Source of the DNA: an uncultured virus (IMG/VR IMGVR_UViG_3300014969_000015)
Taxonomy: Duplodnaviria; Heunggongvirae; Uroviricota; Caudoviricetes
Strand: one strand, 5' to 3'
Virus record (IMG/VR): IMGVR_UViG_3300014969_000015
Length of the DNA: 20,000 bases
Shown: in pieces, positions 3,199 to 20,000 of the stretch
Position numbering within the stretch: the stretch's first letter is position 1
How the letters are laid out: every line of letters starts with the position of its first letter
Position numbers and translations under genes: made by a program
The notes under the pieces: generated by a model
The model's database searches: none
The model's input: only the letters and a program-made list of their open reading frames with translations
Told to the model about the DNA's origin: nothing

Positions 3199-3299
3199 TG
3201 GCCGATCCGAGTCCATGACACACAATCTTAGCAGTTCGACAGTTATCGATCCCCTATGGGGGAGGAATCCAGAACGAATCCTGGCACACGACGTGCGTT

Positions 3300-3315
3300 G
3301 GGTGCAACGCTACTC
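3300..3315. promoter_or_regulatory. Single GGGTG-caacgc-TACTC box
   Basis: Matches GGGTR-N6-YACYC; lies in a divergent intergenic gap; followed by hairpin CTGCCAGC...GCTTGCAG (3335-3361). Confidence 0.5.
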
Positions 3316-4015: not shown

Positions 4016-4164
4016 AACGAGACGGCGCCGCCACGACAATGGGACATGCAACGCCGTCGCTCATCGAGCGCGCGGACCCCTCGGCTTCCCTCAGTCGCCA
4101 AACGAACCGCCATCTGTTGGACGAGATGCACGACACCAACGAAACTTTTCAGCTCTTGGCGCCT

Positions 4165-4234
4165 GGGTACACAGCTACCCGTATCTGGTACGACGCGGGG
4201 CGTGAAGCGTTAGCACCAGGGTTATTATTTACCC
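4165..4234. promoter_or_regulatory. Paired palindromic element E2: GGGTA-cacagc-TACCC (4165-4180) and GGGTT-attatt-TACCC (4219-4234)
   Basis: 54-bp spacing; intervening hairpin CTGGT-AC-GACGC-(GGGGCGTGAA)-GCGTT-AGC-ACCAG (4185-4219); upstream of parB-like gene. Confidence 0.75.
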
Positions 4235-5246: not shown

Positions 5247-5305
5247 GTGCAGGGGCCCGCGCCAGCCCGCGGTCTCCTAGGGCCGCAGTACGCCGAGTGG
5301 CCGAA

Positions 5306-5350
5306 GGGGGTCGCGCACCAGAGGGCCACGCGCCAGAGGGTCACGCACCA
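5306..5350 (+). repeat. 3 x 15-bp imperfect tandem repeat
   Basis: gggggtcgcgcacca / gagggccacgcgcca / gagggtcacgcacca. Confidence 0.8.
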
Positions 5351-5392
5351 GTCATGACAACCAACACAAACACAAACCACGCCGACATTGCG

Positions 5393-5466
5393 CCTCCCCC
5401 GGGCGCGGAGGCTCGTTGCGAGGAGACATTACTCCTCCCCCGGGCGAGGAGGCTTGTTGCGAGGAG
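5393..5466 (+). repeat. 2 x 33-bp direct repeat (period 41) with CCTCC...GGAGG hairpin, in the leader of the LuxR gene
   Basis: cctcccccgggcgcggaggctcgttgcgaggag (5393-5425) vs cctcccccgggcgaggaggcttgttgcgaggag (5434-5466), 31/33 identical. Confidence 0.85.
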
Positions 5467-5482
5467 CGAAAAGGAGCCTTCC

Positions 5483-5965
5483 ATGAAGAAAGCGCGCCTG
5501 CGTAAACAGGTGCAAAGCAAGCTCGTGGGCCAAGCGCTCACAGCGCGCGAAAATGCGGTCCTTTGGCTCGTCATTGAAGGCCTGTCAAACAAGTTGATCG
5601 CGGATCGAATGGCGCTCTCTGAGCACACCGTGAAGTTTCATTTGAGAAACGCCGGGAAGAAAATTGGAACAACCTCACGCACCAAAGCTGCCATCGATTT
5701 TGCTTTAGGCCAAGGCCGGACCGCTCTCGCGCGTATCTCGCCAGCCTCTGAAAAATCAGAGCTTGCTGCGAAACGTGACAAGCTTCTTGAGGACAACTGG
5801 ATCGGAGGTTTCGCAGTGGCCCTTGCAGAGGTCCTCCGCTATGGAGGAGGATACACTTGCGTGTGCCAAGCAGCACGAGCAGCCGGTGTAACCCTCGCGG
5901 CTGCACAAGAGGCAGGAGTTCCCGCGCTTCATCTAGAAACGCTCAAGAGCGCGCTGACCCCGTGA
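5483..5965 (+). CDS. LuxR/GerE-type HTH regulator (N-terminal HTH, unknown C-terminal domain)
   Basis: LTARENAVLWLVIEGLSNKLIADRMALSEHTVKFHLRNAGKKIGTTSR is a canonical LuxR HTH; AAGGAG RBS at 5471-5476. Confidence 0.88.
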   Translation: MKKARLRKQVQSKLVGQALTARENAVLWLVIEGLSNKLIADRMALSEHTVKFHLRNAGKKIGTTSRTKAAIDFALGQGRTALARISPASEKSELAAKRDKLLEDNWIGGFAVALAEVLRYGGGYTCVCQAARAAGVTLAAAQEAGVPALHLETLKSALTP

Positions 5966-6156
5966 CCCCGCGCGTAAGAAGGCGGTTGACACTTTTCTGG
6001 TGACAGGGCACGAAGATTAAAATGATCCACATCCGCAGCAGAAGTGTGCGCCGGAACCGGGTTCCCCTCACCCGAGTGCCCGCAGGGCCCCTCTATAACA
6101 GGCTCGCGGCCAGATCCGGCGCACCCTTTTGTTGCGGAGAACCTGAGGAATCCCTC

Positions 6157-7059
6157 ATGAACCCGCTAGATCCGGAAGGTGCCCCTCGTCCTCTAGATCC
6201 GGAGGGCAGCCCTTTAGACGAGAAGTTCGAGCACGGAATCGCAGCCCTTCGACACGAGCTCTCGCTCAAGGCCATTACTTGGGCCCGCGCAGATCGCAAT
6301 TGTGATGACCTAGCCGCGGCGCTGACTCGAGCCGAAGAAGAACCTGCTCAAAACGCGCTAAAGCGCCTTCAGATCAATTTCCAGCGCGCGTGCCAGCACG
6401 TAGAAGTCTGTGAAGAGGCTCTCAAACAGACAGCACGTGAGCTAGAAAGCGCTTTGGGAAGGCCGGAGGCCGGATCAATGAAAAAGGAATACAGCGGTGA
6501 TGCCGAGGGCGCAACTGTCAACTTGTGCGCTATCATCGAGCGTTTGCTACAGCTTCTCGACGAGAAGGACGCGCAAATCGGCGAGCTGCAGGATAAACTC
6601 GATGCAACCAAGTCCGAATTGGAACACGCGTCGGGTTGGTCTCAACACACGGTTTACAAGGATCCGTCCAAGGCTCCTAATCCAGAGTTGCCCGTCCCAC
6701 GGCTGGAGATCCGCTGGAGCGCGATCAAGAACGGAAGGCACGAGATCGAGGCGATCTATTCGCTTGTCTACCGCCACCTCCTGGGTCACATCGTGTTCGT
6801 ACCCTTCGGCAAAACCGGCTCCTCTGGAGCACTCGCCGATCGAGTGCGCGGGCACGTCATCGAGACACCGTACCGGGACGGTTGTCACTTCGCAAATGAG
6901 ATGCGACAGCTCAATCTCCGCGGATTTGTCGTCGCTGGCTCCAGTGTCTACGAGGCCAAGCTATGCTCGAAATGCGGACGATTCGAAGAGGCGCATCGCG
7001 GAAGGCTGTTCGGGGATGCGTGTACTTATCAAGACAGTGTATTGGAGCACGACCCGTGA
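6157..7059 (+). CDS. Hypothetical coiled-coil protein with C-terminal CxxC..H..C motif
   Basis: GAGGAA RBS before ATG 6157; PLDPEG repeat at N-terminus; heptad-like segments; CSKCGRFEEAH...C. Confidence 0.75.
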   Translation: MNPLDPEGAPRPLDPEGSPLDEKFEHGIAALRHELSLKAITWARADRNCDDLAAALTRAEEEPAQNALKRLQINFQRACQHVEVCEEALKQTARELESALGRPEAGSMKKEYSGDAEGATVNLCAIIERLLQLLDEKDAQIGELQDKLDATKSELEHASGWSQHTVYKDPSKAPNPELPVPRLEIRWSAIKNGRHEIEAIYSLVYRHLLGHIVFVPFGKTGSSGALADRVRGHVIETPYRDGCHFANEMRQLNLRGFVVAGSSVYEAKLCSKCGRFEEAHRGRLFGDACTYQDSVLEHDP

Positions 7060-9743: not shown

Positions 9744-9798
9744 GGGAGACCTTTAAATACGATCCCCTGGGGTTTTTTGGAAGAGCCTCAGTCTACCT

Positions 9799-9875
9799 GG
9801 GTGCTTAGATACCCAGTATACGATTCGCCCTACTGTGAGGCCGGAGCCCCAGCAGCCACAGGTGCAGCAATACCC
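9799..9875. promoter_or_regulatory. Paired palindromic element E3: GGGTG-cttaga-TACCC (9799-9814) and AGGTG-cagcaa-TACCC (9860-9875)
   Basis: 61-bp spacing; stem CTGTG (9833-9837) / CACAG (9857-9861); in the divergent gap upstream of the TM-RuvA_C gene. Confidence 0.7.
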
Positions 9876-9944
9876 GGCCAACGTCCAATTCGATAGTTGG
9901 AGAGCTCACGAAGTTGGCCCACAGTAAGCAAGTCCCATAAAATC

Positions 9945-10373
9945 ATGCTGAGCAACGTCCTCTTCATCCTCCTTGGCGCCGGGCTCGTCTCGGTGGGGTT
10001 CCTCGTAGCTGCCTTCGCAGAGCGGATCCGCGGCCCCCGTGAAACAGAGCCCTACAAGACGCGGCGGGGCCAGCGAACCATCCCGGTCGTGGAGGCCGTT
10101 GAGGTGTTCCATCCTACGGCAGCCCCTCCGCCTACGGCAGCCCAAGCCTCACGGACCGCCGCAGCCCCCGCCTCGCGATCTGCACGCGCCGAAACGAAAA
10201 ATGTCACCAGTTCCGAGGGTGGCGAAGATGTGATCAGCGCCCTCGCAGCGGCAGGCTACAAAAAGGCACTCGCAACAGAGGCTACATGGGCCTGCACAGT
10301 GGCAGAGCGCTCGACGATCGAAGGATGGACGGCAGCGGCTCTTCGTCGGTGTGCGCGAGGAGGGCTAGCGTGA
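9945..10373 (+). CDS. Membrane-anchored RuvA C-terminal-domain (domain III) protein
   Basis: N-terminal hydrophobic helix VLFILLGAGLVSVGFLVAAFA, Pro/Ala/Thr linker, C-terminus EDVISALAAAGYKKALATEAT...TIEGWTAAALRR aligning with RuvA domain III (EAVAALVALGYKPQEA...SSETLIREALR); no OB-fold or HhH domains. Confidence 0.75.
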   Translation: MLSNVLFILLGAGLVSVGFLVAAFAERIRGPRETEPYKTRRGQRTIPVVEAVEVFHPTAAPPPTAAQASRTAAAPASRSARAETKNVTSSEGGEDVISALAAAGYKKALATEATWACTVAERSTIEGWTAAALRRCARGGLA

Positions 10374-10705
10374 GCCCCTCGCACAAGGTAGCGGAAGTTA
10401 AACCGCTGGACGTGACTTGGTGGCGCCGTGACAGTAGCGGTGAGTTCTACACGCAACAAGATGGAGAGGCGCGACTCGTCAAGCTGCGCAACGGTCGAAA
10501 AGTGACCGGCTGGATCTTGTACATCCGCGGTGAATATCGAGGGCAGTGGTCTACGCTCGCGCAAGCTAAACACCGGGCACTGGAAATATCCAAAGGTCAA
10601 GCATCCTTCAACGCTACGCGAGCAACCTTGCGTAATTTCGAGGATGAAGCGGAACGGCTGCGGGCCACAGATAAAACACAGCTTTCAAAGAGTGCTTTAA
10701 AATGA
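10370..10705 (+). CDS. Hypothetical protein
   Basis: GGAGG RBS, GTGA overlap with the TM-RuvA_C stop; Trp-rich beta domain + TLAQAK helix. Confidence 0.7.
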   Translation: MSPSHKVAEVKPLDVTWWRRDSSGEFYTQQDGEARLVKLRNGRKVTGWILYIRGEYRGQWSTLAQAKHRALEISKGQASFNATRATLRNFEDEAERLRATDKTQLSKSALK

Positions 10706-10959
10706 CTGCCCTACACTGGTGGTGCGTTGAATGGCATGACCAGCCCAACCGTGCGATGCGGTCCGACTGGTTCTTGGCAGAGACAGTCGAGACCGCGATC
10801 ATGGAAGCTGCCAGCGTCCCACGTTATGGATGTGTGGAATTCCGAGCAAGTGGGCACCCGCCCATTTCAAATGAATCCGAAGCCGGACGAAAATTGTGGG
10901 TTCAACGCAACCACGGATCACCGACCAAAGGGACGGACCGCAGTGTCGGCCAAAGGTAA
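10702..10959 (+). CDS. Hypothetical protein
   Basis: ATGA overlap with upstream gene. Confidence 0.5.
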   Translation: MTALHWWCVEWHDQPNRAMRSDWFLAETVETAIMEAASVPRYGCVEFRASGHPPISNESEAGRKLWVQRNHGSPTKGTDRSVGQR

Positions 10960-11020
10960 CAGATCATAAGCCCTCGGTGGGACCGACGGTCGAGCCCCCG
11001 GCCGCAGCGGCCACAATACT

Positions 11021-11090
11021 GGGTAGTCCTTTACCCGTATTCGCCTAGCACCGCACCCGTGCACTCACAGACACGGGTATTTTACTACCC
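11021..11090. promoter_or_regulatory. Paired palindromic element E4: GGGTA-gtcctt-TACCC (11021-11036) and GGGTA-ttttac-TACCC (11075-11090)
   Basis: Two perfect boxes 54 bp apart; hairpin ACCCGTG (11055-11061) / CACGGGT (11072-11078); immediately upstream of ruvB. Confidence 0.8.
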
Positions 11091-11122
11091 CCTGCCCGAA
11101 AATCTAATAGTTAGCACCTAAA

Positions 11123-12184
11123 ATGCTCGGCACACACCTCGCAGCATCCCCTGACATGCCCACGCACCTCCACCTCGTCCATGAAGAGCCCCGCTCCACT
11201 CCTTGTCCTCAAGGAGCCGATCCTGCCCTCCGACCGACCTCATTCGACGACTATGTCGGACAGGCCGAGGTGATCAACAATCTCCGACAATCCGTCCGCG
11301 CAGCCAAGCGCGGTGCGTGGCAACTGGATCATATGTTGTTCGCCGGTCCCGCAGGCCTTGGCAAGACCTCGCTCGCGGCCGTCGTCGCGGCCGAGCTGGG
11401 CTCCAAGCTCCACGCCACCTCAGCCCCCGCGATCGAGCACAAGGGCGCTCTCGCGACCCTACTCACCACACTGGAAGAGGGGGACGTCCTGTTCATCGAT
11501 GAGCTTCACGCCCTCGATCGCGCGGTCGCTGAATGCCTGTACTCAGCCATGGAGGACCGCGTAATCGACCTACCTGCCGGCAAGCGCGTCATCCGAGTAC
11601 CACTGCCGAAGTTCACCCTGCTCGGAGCAACGACCCACGCGGGCAAGCTCTCCAAGCCCCTGCTCGATCGCTTCGGTTTCATCTGGCAACTCCGGCTCTA
11701 CACGCTGTCCGAGATGACCACGATCGTTACACGCTCTGCAGCCAAGCTCGGCGTCGCCATAGAGCCCCAGGGAGCAGAAGTGATCGCGCGCGCTTCGCGA
11801 GGCACCCCGCGCATCGCGAACCGCCTCCTGCGCCGGGTGCGCGACACCGCGACCAATGCAGCCGCGGATGGGGCCCTCGTTCTGGGCTGCCTCCAGGACC
11901 TGACATGCGCGGGCGGTACCATCAACGAAGCGCTTGCCACCAGCGCACTCACACTACTTGGCCTTGACCACCTAGGACTCGACCCCCTCGATCGTCGCTA
12001 TCTGGCAATCGTGGAAGAGCGGCCGGTAGGCATCGAGGCCCTCTGTGCCGAACTGGCCGAGGATCGCAGCACAATCGAAGACACAATCGAGCCGTTCCTG
12101 CTACAGGTCGGCCTCATCAAGCGCGGCAGCAAGGGCCGCCTCGCCACCGAGGCCGGACGAAAACATCTTGCGGAGGGCCTATGA
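11123..12184 (+). CDS. ruvB: Holliday junction branch migration AAA+ motor RuvB (start may be ATG 11156)
   Basis: LRPTSFDDYVGQ, Walker A GPAGLGKT, Walker B VLFIDELH, LYSAMED, sensor-1 GATT, DRFG arginine finger, sensor-2 RGTPRIANRLLRRVRD, winged-helix EDTIEPFL...GR. Confidence 0.97.
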   Translation: MLGTHLAASPDMPTHLHLVHEEPRSTPCPQGADPALRPTSFDDYVGQAEVINNLRQSVRAAKRGAWQLDHMLFAGPAGLGKTSLAAVVAAELGSKLHATSAPAIEHKGALATLLTTLEEGDVLFIDELHALDRAVAECLYSAMEDRVIDLPAGKRVIRVPLPKFTLLGATTHAGKLSKPLLDRFGFIWQLRLYTLSEMTTIVTRSAAKLGVAIEPQGAEVIARASRGTPRIANRLLRRVRDTATNAAADGALVLGCLQDLTCAGGTINEALATSALTLLGLDHLGLDPLDRRYLAIVEERPVGIEALCAELAEDRSTIEDTIEPFLLQVGLIKRGSKGRLATEAGRKHLAEGL

Positions 12185-14804: not shown

Positions 14805-14983
14805 CATTCATCCTCCACCCAAAGCCTATCAACACAAAACTCCACGCCCAACTGACATGGCACGCGATCATTGCAGAGTACTACGCCAGCATTGACTGTG
14901 CCGATCGAGCCTCCCAACGATGGCACGCAATCGTGACGCTGTGCAAGGTCAATGGAGGCGTGCAGCGAGGAGCACCGTCATAA
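14801..14983 (+). CDS. Small hypothetical protein
   Basis: GTGA overlap, AAGGG upstream. Confidence 0.4.
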   Translation: MTFILHPKPINTKLHAQLTWHAIIAEYYASIDCADRASQRWHAIVTLCKVNGGVQRGAPS

Positions 14984-15060
14984 GAAGCAACGGGCAGCCA
15001 AAGCACAGTCTTGCGGAGCGTTTAGTAGCCGTAGAAAGTTCCAATAATGAACAGTCCCAA

Positions 15061-15564
15061 ATGAAGGCCCTTACGCTTACACAGCCCTGGTGTGGTCTGG
15101 TGGCCGCCGGTACGAAGCTCGTTGAAAACCGCTCGCGCTACATCATCAAGCGCTCGGACTTTGGCAAGCCTTTCGCGCTACATGCAAGCCGTGAGATCAA
15201 TGAGACAGTGTACGAGCGCATCTCCAAGATCGCCCCAGAGTTGCCAGGTAGTACACCTGCCGAGTGGGGTTGTCGCTGGCACGCACTCTCACGAATTACC
15301 AGTGCCGTGATTGCCATAGCGACAATCGACCGTTTGCTCGATCCACGGGCATGCGGAATCCTACCCGACACTGATGAAGCACGCGCGGCGCTGCCTCTTG
15401 ACCAACGGCGCTGGTTCTTTGGCCCCATCGGCTACGTGCTGCGCGACGTTCAGGCCCTCGCGACACCGGTACCGTGCCGGGGCTGGCAAGGCTTCTGGAC
15501 CTTGCCCCACAACGTAGAGCGTGCCGTGGTCGAACAGCTCGCGGCACCTCCACCCCCGCACTAA
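15061..15564 (+). CDS. ASCH domain protein
   Basis: MKALTLTQPWCGLVAAGTKLVENRS...GKPFALHAS and C-terminal PVPCRGWQGFW match the ASCH GxKxxExR signature. Confidence 0.88.
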   Translation: MKALTLTQPWCGLVAAGTKLVENRSRYIIKRSDFGKPFALHASREINETVYERISKIAPELPGSTPAEWGCRWHALSRITSAVIAIATIDRLLDPRACGILPDTDEARAALPLDQRRWFFGPIGYVLRDVQALATPVPCRGWQGFWTLPHNVERAVVEQLAAPPPPH

Positions 15565-17896: not shown

Positions 17897-18187
17897 ACGG
17901 TGTTTCACAACTCAGCGACGTGCGAGGCAGCACATTTTCGGTCAGTGCCCCCGATGAATTTTTGAAGTTCGCCTCGCCGTTGACCTTGAGGGACCTCATT
18001 GTTGTCGTGGTCACGTACATCGGTCTCCACAAAAGAGGGTGCCCATTTTTCGGGTGTCTGGTCGGTACGGACGCGCTAACCGAAAGGCTTGAAACAACAA
18101 AGAGCTGTTGAAAAGGTCACGCGTCTTGATGACTAGGTAGGGCCCACTGCCGCTACATCAACCATAACCGACGGCATGCATTGACCT

Positions 18188-18203
18188 GGGTAGCTAGCTA
18201 CTC
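18188..18203. promoter_or_regulatory. Single GGGTA-gctagc-TACTC box
   Basis: Matches consensus, preceded by CCT as in E2/E3; followed by hairpin TCTGCAA (18214-18220) / TTGTAGA (18233-18239); upstream of the operon starting at 18325. Confidence 0.6.
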
Positions 18204-19487: not shown

Positions 19488-20000
19488 TGGCAAAAGCAAG
19501 GGTACAAAAGAGTGCAAAGACGACCTTCGGCAAAAGCAATGAGAACGATCCGCTCGTTCGAATTGAAATTCGTGCCGCAGCACTGGTCGCCGGAGCACGG
19601 AGTCGTAAAATGGAGCGCTATGGCATGACCGTGCATGGCATCGACTGCGAAGGGATTCGCGACGAGGAGCCCGTGTACCCGGCCCGTGACCGCGCTGACA
19701 TCGATGCTGGCTGGCTATGCAGCGAAATTCGTGAGCATTCGGATAGTCAGGTCGCGATCGACGCGCAGTTGCCGACCGACACCTCCATCGAAGACGCGGC
19801 TCCCCTCAAGGAGGACCAGGCATCATCCATCGACAGCGCCCCGCCCCTCGATGAGGCTGCGGCGCCCATCGCCAGTGACACGCCCCTCGACGAGGAGGCG
19901 GCACCCCTCGACAGCGCTCCGTCCCTCGATGAGGCGGCGGCACCCCTCGACAGCGCCCCATCCCTCGATGAGGCGGCGGCACCCCTCAACAGCGCCACGC
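19487..20000 (+). CDS. 3'-truncated ORF (MAKARVQKSAKTTFGK...) with acidic 13-aa tandem repeats
   Basis: GAGGAG RBS at 19474-19479; frame open to the window end; absent from ORF track because there is no stop. Confidence 0.75.
   Translation, partial: MAKARVQKSAKTTFGKSNENDPLVRIEIRAAALVAGARSRKMERYGMTVHGIDCEGIRDEEPVYPARDRADIDAGWLCSEIREHSDSQVAIDAQLPTDTSIEDAAPLKEDQASSIDSAPPLDEAAAPIASDTPLDEEAAPLDSAPSLDEAAAPLDSAPSLDEAAAPLNSAT
19829..20000 (+). repeat. 39-bp coding tandem repeat, at least 4.4 units (LDSAPSLDEAAAP)
   Basis: Units start at 19829, 19868, 19907, 19946, 19985. Confidence 0.9.

Follow-up and report, generated by a model that had tools for sequence, protein, structure and literature searches.

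The anchor gene and the RuvB gene

This work concerns a 20,000-nucleotide stretch of DNA, hereafter the window, from the genome of an uncultured virus of the Caudoviricetes (IMG/VR record IMGVR_UViG_3300014969_000015). The window was the portion read of a contig of 127,649 bp. It carries a short gene for a putative membrane-anchored protein whose C-terminus resembles RuvA domain III (P0001, the anchor) and, downstream on the same strand, an intact gene for a RuvB motor protein (P0002). The features of this locus, including open reading frames (ORFs) of no known family, are as follows.

9945–10373, + strand: anchor gene, from ATG to TGA, 142 aa, encoding P0001, a predicted membrane-anchored RuvA-domain-III protein of a conserved family
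9957–10019, + strand: predicted transmembrane helix (residues 5–25), from hydropathy, flanking charges, the invariant L9, G11, A12 and G18, and a helix model
10020–10217, + strand: basic, Pro/Ala-rich, predicted disordered linker (residues 26–91), with a predicted local distance difference test score (pLDDT) below 50 for residues 39–90
10218–10370, + strand: RuvA domain III-like three-helix domain (residues 92–142), from profile, fold and docking evidence
10370–10705, + strand: small ORF, 111 aa, GTG start overlapping the anchor stop (GTGA); no known family
10702–10959, + strand: small ORF, 85 aa, ATG start overlapping the preceding stop (ATGA); no known family
11123–12184, + strand: ruvB, encoding P0002, 353 aa from ATG, with RuvB_N, AAA_lid_4 and RuvB_C; the gene call on the record starts at M12 (11156)

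The ruvB gene begins 749 nt after the stop codon of the anchor gene, the gap being occupied by the two small ORFs and, after the second of them, a spacer of 163 nt. An intact ruvB downstream of the anchor gene had been proposed in an earlier reading of the letters alone (the sequence-only reading) and was indeed found, P0002 exceeding both curated RuvB cut-offs (NF000868, 365.8 bits against 282; TIGR00635, 332.9 bits against 299). The Walker A and B motifs, AMED, DRF and the sensor-2 motif GTPRIANR do not vary among 39 RuvBs of the P0002 type, and on these motifs the motor looks active.

The same reading had seen neither a RuvA with the oligonucleotide-binding (OB) fold and helix-hairpin-helix (HhH) motifs nor a RuvC in the window, and this holds. 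No Pfam match to RuvA_N, HhH or RuvC was obtained among the 48 window ORFs scanned, and a six-frame scan of the window with a hidden Markov model (HMM) of 22 canonical RuvAs revealed no RuvA domain I or II. These RuvAs were ORFs located just upstream of ruvB in cellular genomes, all matching TIGR00084 at E ≤ 1e-5, and the scan recovered full-length RuvA in two control loci (E ≤ 1e-59). A canonical ruvA elsewhere on the same element would be at odds with the sequence-only reading; none was seen in the 20 kb read of the 127,649 bp, in two fragmentary viral records that also carry the pair, or within 4 kb of ruvB in any of 31 viral RuvB loci from IMG/VR.

A conserved family of anchor proteins

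P0001 starts with MLSN, followed by 21 hydrophobic residues without any charge (residues 5–25, mean Kyte-Doolittle hydropathy of 2.59), the basic ERIRGPRETEPYKTRRGQR, a part rich in Pro, Ala, Ser and Thr (enriched at residues about 56–85) and the C-terminal GGEDVISALAAAGYKK...AALRRCARGGLA. The segment directly after the helix, ERIRGPRETEPYKTR, has five K/R in 15 residues. AlphaFold2, run with the full alignment, gave an N-terminal helix at residues 2–28 (block-mean pLDDT of 93, 97 and 86 across residues 1–30), no structure at residues 39–90 and three helices at residues 93–139. A longer form starting at the TTG at 9897 is not backed by the family, members of which begin at the M(Q)LSNVL position instead.

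The anchor gene is real and conserved. A word-indexed search yielded 137 relatives at E ≤ 0.01, all of 115–171 aa and about 45–60% identical over their full length, while an exhaustive profile search returned 278 representatives of clusters at 50% identity with E ≤ 1e-3, 198 of them at E ≤ 1e-10. The best 150 of these 278 representatives are 62–182 aa long and most aligned from the helix through the C-terminus. The family bears a viral label wherever a taxon is known, and no relative was found in INPHARED (GenBank) phages, PLSDB plasmids or GTDB representative genomes.

In an alignment of 58 members, conservation is seen in the helix and the C-terminal domain, and the linker varies in length and sequence. 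Residues L9, G11, A12 and G18 of the helix are invariant, as are V96, L100, G104, A110, W115, A116, C117, E121, R122, E126, W128 and A132 of the domain. Family linkers have a median length of 64 aa and are composed of 16% R, 15% A and 13% P. Within the linker, P0001 displays the motif IPVV (residues 46–49, 10080–10091); a motif of this I-P/E/Q-V-V type (I-x-V) occurs in 109 of 188 family members, and distant viral members (loci L094, L096, L098, L100 and L002) carry RVIPL, RLVPL or TIPL in their linkers. This conserved motif may constitute a second binding site.

Membrane topology was in turn evaluated from the charges flanking the helix. According to the positive-inside rule, basic residues adjoining a membrane helix mark its cytoplasmic side, and signal peptides are organized in n-, h- and c-regions. 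In each of the 58 aligned members, K/R are more numerous in the 15 residues that follow the helix than ahead of it (means of 4.5 and 0.05), and the hydrophobic stretch, with a median length of 21 residues and a median hydropathy of 2.39, starts within the first 12 residues in 53 of them. P0001 is accordingly predicted to be an N-out, C-in anchor with its domain in the cytoplasm, because K/R follow the helix. A cleaved signal peptide would have spoken against the sequence-only reading, and the N-terminus is unlike one in charge and helix length: most of the 58 members have no basic residue ahead of the helix, P0001 lacks a basic n-region, its h-region is 21 residues long, K/R are abundant downstream, and arginines are located at +2 and +4. 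A small-x-small triplet at the end of the helix (AFA in P0001, ALA in the consensus) resembles a signal-peptidase site.

That P0001 is a secreted protein, its hydrophobic N-terminus being cleaved off and its domain lying outside the cytoplasm, is thus hardly credible to us. Such a reading would draw on this triplet and on two cysteines conserved in the close family, but the second cysteine is missing in distant members, the predicted partner is cytoplasmic, and a 21-residue stretch with so few K/R before it and so many after it would, by the general rules of export, be blocked.

Identity of the C-terminal domain

We conclude, mainly from profile evidence, that the C-terminal domain is homologous to RuvA domain III. 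P0001 alone weakly matches the very end of the TIGR00084 ruvA model (positions 146–201 of 202, E = 0.078, 12.6 bits against a cut-off of 85). At the family level, the Pfam domain RuvA_C (PF07499) is matched by 33 of the 58 members at E ≤ 1, with a best value of 2.3e-5, and other families by at most two members each. In line with this, the HMM of the 22 canonical RuvAs matches the P0001 ORF at E = 6e-4, and does so only through its positions 140–197 of 198. Profile-profile comparison by hhalign paired residues 87–138 of the 58-member alignment with the last 52 RuvA columns (E = 1.8e-4); with the domain alone, aligned over 12 members including distant viral ones, it reached a probability of 91% and E = 9e-7 over 49 columns ending at the RuvA C-terminus. 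A profile of the whole family found nothing among PDB sequences at E ≤ 10.

The predicted fold was compared with solved structures. A model of the domain alone (mean pLDDT of 86) retrieved RuvA domain III chains at Foldseek ranks 1–5, including 1ixs_A, 7pbm_H and 7x7p_A, all with E above 1 for this tiny domain. Superposition on 1ixs_A gave TM-scores of 0.69/0.76 and a root-mean-square deviation of 1.9 over 47 columns. RuvA accounted for 13 of the top 20 rows and UBA domains for the remainder, and RuvA domain III was also top-ranked with the full-length model (E = 1.1). The features of a full-length RuvA as defined by TIGR00084, i.e., the OB fold of domain I and the two HhH motifs of domain II, are missing, residues 1–91 consisting of the helix and the disordered linker. 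Lacking domains I and II, P0001 does not qualify as a RuvA. The architecture described by the sequence-only reading for 9945–10373, a transmembrane helix followed by basic residues, a Pro/Ala linker and a RuvA domain III-like C-terminus, is thereby confirmed, the identity of the domain depending mainly on the family profiles.

A remodeled putative docking surface on RuvB

Within RuvB, the following regions distinguish P0002 from cellular or solved RuvBs.

11432–11473, + strand: helix alpha3 (residues 104–117), predicted docking surface, with clade-specific H106 and A109
11558–11611, + strand: presensor-1 beta-hairpin (residues 146–163), four residues shorter than in cellular RuvBs, predicted docking surface
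11849–11920: insertion of 16 residues between the lid and the head domain (residues about 243–266), compared with solved RuvBs

The alignment used for this comparison comprised 39 RuvBs of the P0002 type and 59 cellular ones, the latter being those that passed the extraction filter out of 80 loci. At its tip, the presensor-1 hairpin shows a gap of four residues in 39/39 RuvBs of the P0002 type and in 0/59 cellular RuvBs (18 against 22 aa). When the hairpin was delimited by a regular expression running from AMED to FTLxGATT, it had 18 residues in 36 of the 39 (three unmatched) and 22 residues in 79 of the 80 cellular loci (one unmatched). Position 106 is H in 39/39 and R or K in 59/59 cellular RuvBs, while position 109 is A, Q or E in the P0002 type and D in 59/59 cellular RuvBs. 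The cellular-type hairpin, defined by 22 residues, a hydrophobic tip and GD in alpha3, does not occur in the P0002 type. Alignment-based computation shows that the presumed RuvA-binding surface of this RuvB clade has been remodeled. Compared with solved RuvBs, P0002 is also four residues short ahead of the winged helix.

The 120 closest relatives of P0002 are 70–83% identical to it and all metagenomic; among the matches listed from GTDB representative genomes, the nearest RuvB shares 50% identity, and matches in phages are 41–49% identical and mostly unannotated fragments. With P0002 as a single query, viral contigs returned nothing, whereas an alignment-based scan did find loci. In a quick RuvB tree, the anchor-linked RuvBs fall outside a cluster formed by all 59 cellular and 19 other viral RuvBs, the separating branches having SH-aLRT support of 99. 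The two anchor-linked groups were not resolved as one clade, and no origin or direction of transfer is drawn from this tree, in which L094, L098 and L099 are placed on a branch of length 10 that is probably an artefact of crude ORF extraction. Other viral RuvBs differ again in their hairpins, which have 14 residues in L106, L107, L109 and L111 and a different 18-residue type in L101/L102; the RuvBs of L101–L124 may have unrecognized partners of their own.

Docking of the anchor domain on RuvB was predicted with a complex model made of P0001 residues 86–142 and RuvB residues 30–353, each with a separate alignment. Three runs gave a docking score of 0.66, whereas three controls did not exceed 0.01; of 157 solved complexes, 116 attained that mark, as did 2 of 215 mismatched pairs. 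The runs agreed in at least 98% of contacts, with a partner pLDDT of 84. In the model, RuvB contributes residues 106–109, 111–113, 115–116, 150–153, 155 and 157–160, and P0001 residues 95–96, 98–100, 102–105, 125–127, 129–130, 133–134 and 136–137, including V96, L100, G104 and E126. The domain is thus predicted to dock on the canonical site, made of helix alpha3 and the presensor-1 hairpin; the lack of any predicted RuvB interaction would have spoken against the sequence-only reading. In RuvAB, the RuvA domain III site on RuvB is a hydrophobic composite of these same two elements (PMC9477746; PMC10272136). RuvA domain III was described as tethering the RuvA-junction core to the RuvB rings, as playing the double role of nucleotide-exchange factor and ATPase-activating domain, and as having to release and rebind while the ring turns (PMC9477746).

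Linkage of the anchor and RuvB genes

Linkage was assessed in nine loci gathered via the anchor protein and in 31 IMG/VR loci gathered via the RuvB alignment. Two of the former (L006 and L009) were too short to be judged; of the other seven, six (L001, L002, L004, L005, L007 and L008) have a RuvB gene 0.02–0.45 kb downstream on the same strand. Conversely, an anchor gene lies 0.1–2.3 kb upstream of RuvB, on the same strand, in 7 of the 31 IMG/VR loci (L094, L096, L097, L098, L099, L100 and L103), L097 and L103 being the contigs of L001 and L002 again. The anchors of all seven display the helix, the basic cluster, the long linker and the domain. The pairing is kept across RuvBs only 44–47% identical and in neighborhoods that are otherwise unrelated; indeed, the pair itself is all that the window proteins have in common with the two phage records carrying distant pairs. 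As a proxy for co-location, 32 of 118 listed anchor members could be matched, by the exact size of their longest contig, to one of the 120 closest RuvBs. The anchor and RuvB genes travel together. The co-occurrence expected by the sequence-only reading was hence found in most of the anchor loci that could be judged and in part of the RuvB loci, the exceptions (L003 and L095) being considered below.

Proposed mechanism and alternatives

A RuvB tethered to the membrane is well supported in silico. The interpretation offered by the sequence-only reading, a motor fixed by a membrane anchor in place of the junction-binding domains, gains partial support from the architecture of P0001, its pairing with ruvB, the lack of a junction-binding RuvA in the regions covered, and the predicted docking of canonical type. 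A dsDNA pump for uptake, segregation or transfer, the role that the sequence-only reading drew from this, would be a further step. We propose a two-gene module of tailed phages, the first product of which would be a single-pass membrane protein with 3–5 N-terminal residues outside the cell and, at the end of a flexible basic linker of about 65 residues, a cytoplasmic domain of 50 residues homologous to RuvA domain III. This domain would bind the RuvB of the module at the composite site used by RuvA, so that the RuvB hexamer would be held at the inner face of the membrane; it would be held there rather than at a Holliday junction because RuvA domains I and II are missing. By analogy with RuvA domain III, RuvB would probably also be stimulated there. 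With the docking site of RuvB remodeled in this clade, the two proteins probably form a pair private to the phage. An anchor that both brings its own RuvB to the membrane and activates it there has, in our judgment, an even chance of being the correct explanation.

A ring motor acting on duplex DNA and bound to a stator fixed in the membrane would move DNA relative to that membrane. The most likely use would be the handling of phage DNA at the envelope, such as drawing in or positioning the genome, or organizing replication and recombination. In a more specific and tentative version, which we consider rather unlikely, the anchored domain III would be the stator of a machine for phage DNA import or positioning, an AAA+ counterpart of FtsK, SpoIIIE and TraB. 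RuvB rings on the phage duplex would then be gripped and cycled by anchored copies of domain III, reeling in the genome; the linker motif (IPVV/RVIPL) and the Cys/Glu-Arg/Trp face of the domain would bind a second component, and the co-evolved interface would insulate the phage RuvB from host RuvA.

Several observations weigh against a dedicated anchor-RuvB machine. P0001 on its own has no Pfam match at E ≤ 10, so that the RuvA_C hit predicted by the sequence-only reading stands for the family and not for P0001 itself. The docking result, obtained with purpose-made alignments, may stem from a memory of solved RuvA-RuvB complexes and would then reflect likeness rather than binding. In L003, no RuvB is encoded within 3 kb after the anchor gene. 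There, a mobile endonuclease may have displaced or split the neighborhood, the ORF that directly follows the anchor gene being the one below.

L003, 6410–7570: ORF of 386 aa directly after the anchor gene, matching Hom_end_hint (E = 2.3e-10) and a LAGLIDADG homing endonuclease (E = 3.2e-4)

Likewise, L095, on a 62-kb record (G003), has the same RuvB type with no anchor gene. Residues W115, A116, C117, E121 and R122 (10287–10310) are invariant in the close family, the A-C and E-R pairs being present in distant members too; canonical RuvA lacks these residues, none of which is part of the predicted RuvB contact, and the invariant Cys, Glu-Arg and Trp may thus serve a second partner of the domain. 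A floppy linker of 65 residues is a poor mechanical stator. Finally, a RuvA, a RuvC or another junction binder could be encoded elsewhere on the 127,649-bp contig.

In a different role for the pair, RuvB would migrate Holliday junctions or reversed forks with the help of host RuvA or of an unrecognized phage junction binder, the anchor merely placing this activity at a replication-recombination factory on the membrane. The completeness and conservation of RuvB, winged-helix head included, would suit such a role, as would the SbcC-like and PDDEXK nuclease genes of the phage records; neighboring genes, mostly of unknown family, could hide a junction binder. We nevertheless regard it as doubtful, in view of the absence of RuvA domains I and II from the window, from the two viral records and from the 4 kb around the 31 viral RuvB loci, and of the remodeled hairpin and alpha3, which would make the use of host RuvA questionable. 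Alternatively, the C-terminal domain could be a generic UBA-like three-helix module, and P0001 an envelope factor, involved in lysis timing or superinfection exclusion, that merely belongs to the same gene cluster. The UBA domains among the Foldseek rows, the invariant C117, E121, R122 and W128 absent from canonical RuvA and outside the predicted contact, and the conserved glycines of the helix, suggestive of helix-helix packing in the membrane, would fit this explanation. It is however made very improbable by the first five Foldseek ranks and the profile match, which are RuvA, by a pairing with RuvB that persists at 44–47% RuvB identity in unrelated neighborhoods, and by the lack of any PADLOC or PHROG family that fits.

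The anchored domain might also act as a regulator or decoy, keeping the phage and/or host RuvB off DNA or switching it off, and thereby timing or blocking branch migration and fork reversal. Domain III occurs here alone, deprived of a DNA-targeting part, and the separate motif copies upstream of each gene (see below) could allow the ratio of the two products to be regulated. Moreover, stand-alone RuvA_C proteins in phages that have no RuvB, as in the available account of Bacillus phage Kirov (PMC10454425) and in an ESM Atlas cluster of 75, hint at host RuvB as a target for some of them. The presence of the phage's own RuvB, with a docking site that differs at positions invariant in 59/59 cellular RuvBs, rather argues for a private productive pair, and domain III activates RuvB in RuvAB and does not inhibit it (PMC9477746). 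On balance, we consider regulation of this kind to be unlikely. Sequestration of host RuvB at the membrane, which the sequence-only reading had also envisaged, is less likely because the anchor travels with its own RuvB of remodeled docking surface.

Relation to known systems

This system is a variant of RuvAB: motor family, adaptor domain and predicted docking site are shared, and the differences lie in the attachment of the adaptor and in the co-changed interface. P0002 is a full member of the RuvB family, and the P0001 domain aligns with RuvA domain III and has the same predicted docking site. By contrast, domains I and II of RuvA, with their OB fold and HhH motifs, which provide tetramerization and junction binding, are replaced here by a transmembrane helix and a disordered linker. 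The RuvB hairpin is four residues shorter, with H106 and A109 where cellular RuvBs have R/K and D, and the genes are phage-borne, with no RuvC found in the window.

To our knowledge, RuvB has been described as a motor that works only where RuvA places it on a Holliday junction. Membrane-held hexameric motors for double-stranded DNA are exemplified by FtsK, SpoIIIE and Streptomyces TraB, which combine a RecA-fold ATPase and a membrane domain in one polypeptide. The likeness to these is one of idea only: a hexameric ring motor on duplex DNA, located at the membrane, moves DNA relative to the envelope. Here, by contrast, the motor belongs to the presensor-1 insert clade of AAA+ proteins, and a separate adaptor with a single helix would hold it non-covalently. 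No FtsK_SpoIIIE family match occurred among the 18 Pfam matches of P0002, or for P0001. Another comparison is offered by p16.7 of phage phi29, a small protein whose N-terminus forms a membrane helix and whose cytoplasmic C-terminal domain binds DNA, and which brings DNA transactions to the membrane. Likened by description only, both are small phage membrane proteins with a cytoplasmic C-terminal domain; p16.7 binds DNA, whereas the cytoplasmic domain of P0001 is predicted to bind a motor.

Stand-alone phage RuvA_C proteins are similarly small and have kept only RuvA_C, one of them being found in Bacillus phage Kirov, which differs in being described without a RuvB in the available text (PMC10454425). 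The literature searched ascribed to such proteins neither a membrane anchor, nor a cognate phage RuvB, nor any function, and it did not describe RuvA domain III on a membrane anchor or a phage RuvB paired in this way. The anchor family appears to have kept the domain that grips RuvB and exchanged junction recognition for a membrane anchor, beside a RuvB with a changed gripping surface. If binding occurs as predicted, RuvA domain III would be a portable RuvB adaptor, RuvB could be re-targeted to a cell structure, and phages may run a private RuvB insulated from that of the host. Such a pair also offers a two-protein system in which the "stator and nucleotide-exchange factor" model of domain III could be addressed without a junction complex. 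If the idea of a DNA pump is true, it would represent a new type of membrane DNA translocase.

Upstream motif and genomic context

The motif TGGGT-N7-TAC(C/T)C occurs six times in the window, always on the + strand (124–140, 3299–3315, 4164–4180, 9798–9814, 11020–11036 and 18187–18203), against 0.10 expected, and none of 200 shuffles reached six. Two of these copies precede the genes of interest.

9798–9814, + strand: TGGGT-N7-TACCC, promoter/operator-like, 131 nt upstream of the anchor gene
11020–11036, + strand: second copy of TGGGT-N7-TACCC, 87 nt upstream of ruvB

The paired element that the sequence-only reading had placed upstream of both genes was therefore confirmed in part, as a common core at 9798 and 11020; the flanks beyond this core align poorly. 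The motif is probably an element-specific promoter or operator. Its spacing resembles that of a sigma-54 promoter, the consensus of which has GC at -12; this candidate was rejected, the -12 position being AC in 6/6 copies.

The window has a G+C content of 60%, and its plausible genes are nearly all on the + strand, the majority without a Pfam or PHROG family. The viral records with distant anchor-RuvB pairs, of an estimated completeness of 21–53%, encode a gpA-type large terminase, a phage PDDEXK nuclease, MT-A70, an SbcC-like ATPase and an AAA ATPase. ESM Atlas neighbors of P0001 belong to clusters labeled 100% viral (Uroviricota), with scores of 0.79–0.88 that are leads only; PF07499 RuvA_C is present on 11, 20 and 95% of the members of these clusters. 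We read the window as a portion of a large tailed-phage genome. An element integrated in a host, or mis-binned, is also conceivable, and two RuvB relatives of P0002 bear metagenome-assembled genome labels of Gaiellaceae and Acidobacteriota. PADLOC returned no defence family for P0001, and only a generic AAA similarity for P0002 (IetA, E = 3.3e-5 over 48 residues).

Other features of the window are listed below.

14920–15564: gene matching phrog_3193 (E = 7.7e-31), the sole other window gene with clear viral relatives
6022–7059: ORF of 345 aa, no known family, residues 73–153 having relatives 30–38% identical
5297–5965: gene with a GerE/LuxR-type helix-turn-helix (E = 3.3e-17), containing adjacent 41-nt copies at 5384–5465 that are 90% alike
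19811–20000: tandem 39-nt repeats, at least four copies, 69–80% alike, inside an open frame and up to the window end

Relatives of the gene at 14920–15564, 57–61% identical, were found on five IMG/VR records, two of which are complete with terminal repeats; both the anchor and RuvB are absent from these five records. Relatives of the ORF at 6022–7059 immediately precede the anchor gene in L003, L006 and L007, and this ORF could be a third member of the anchor neighborhood. The 39-nt repeats at the end of the window presumably encode a 13-residue protein repeat rich in Pro, Asp and Ala.

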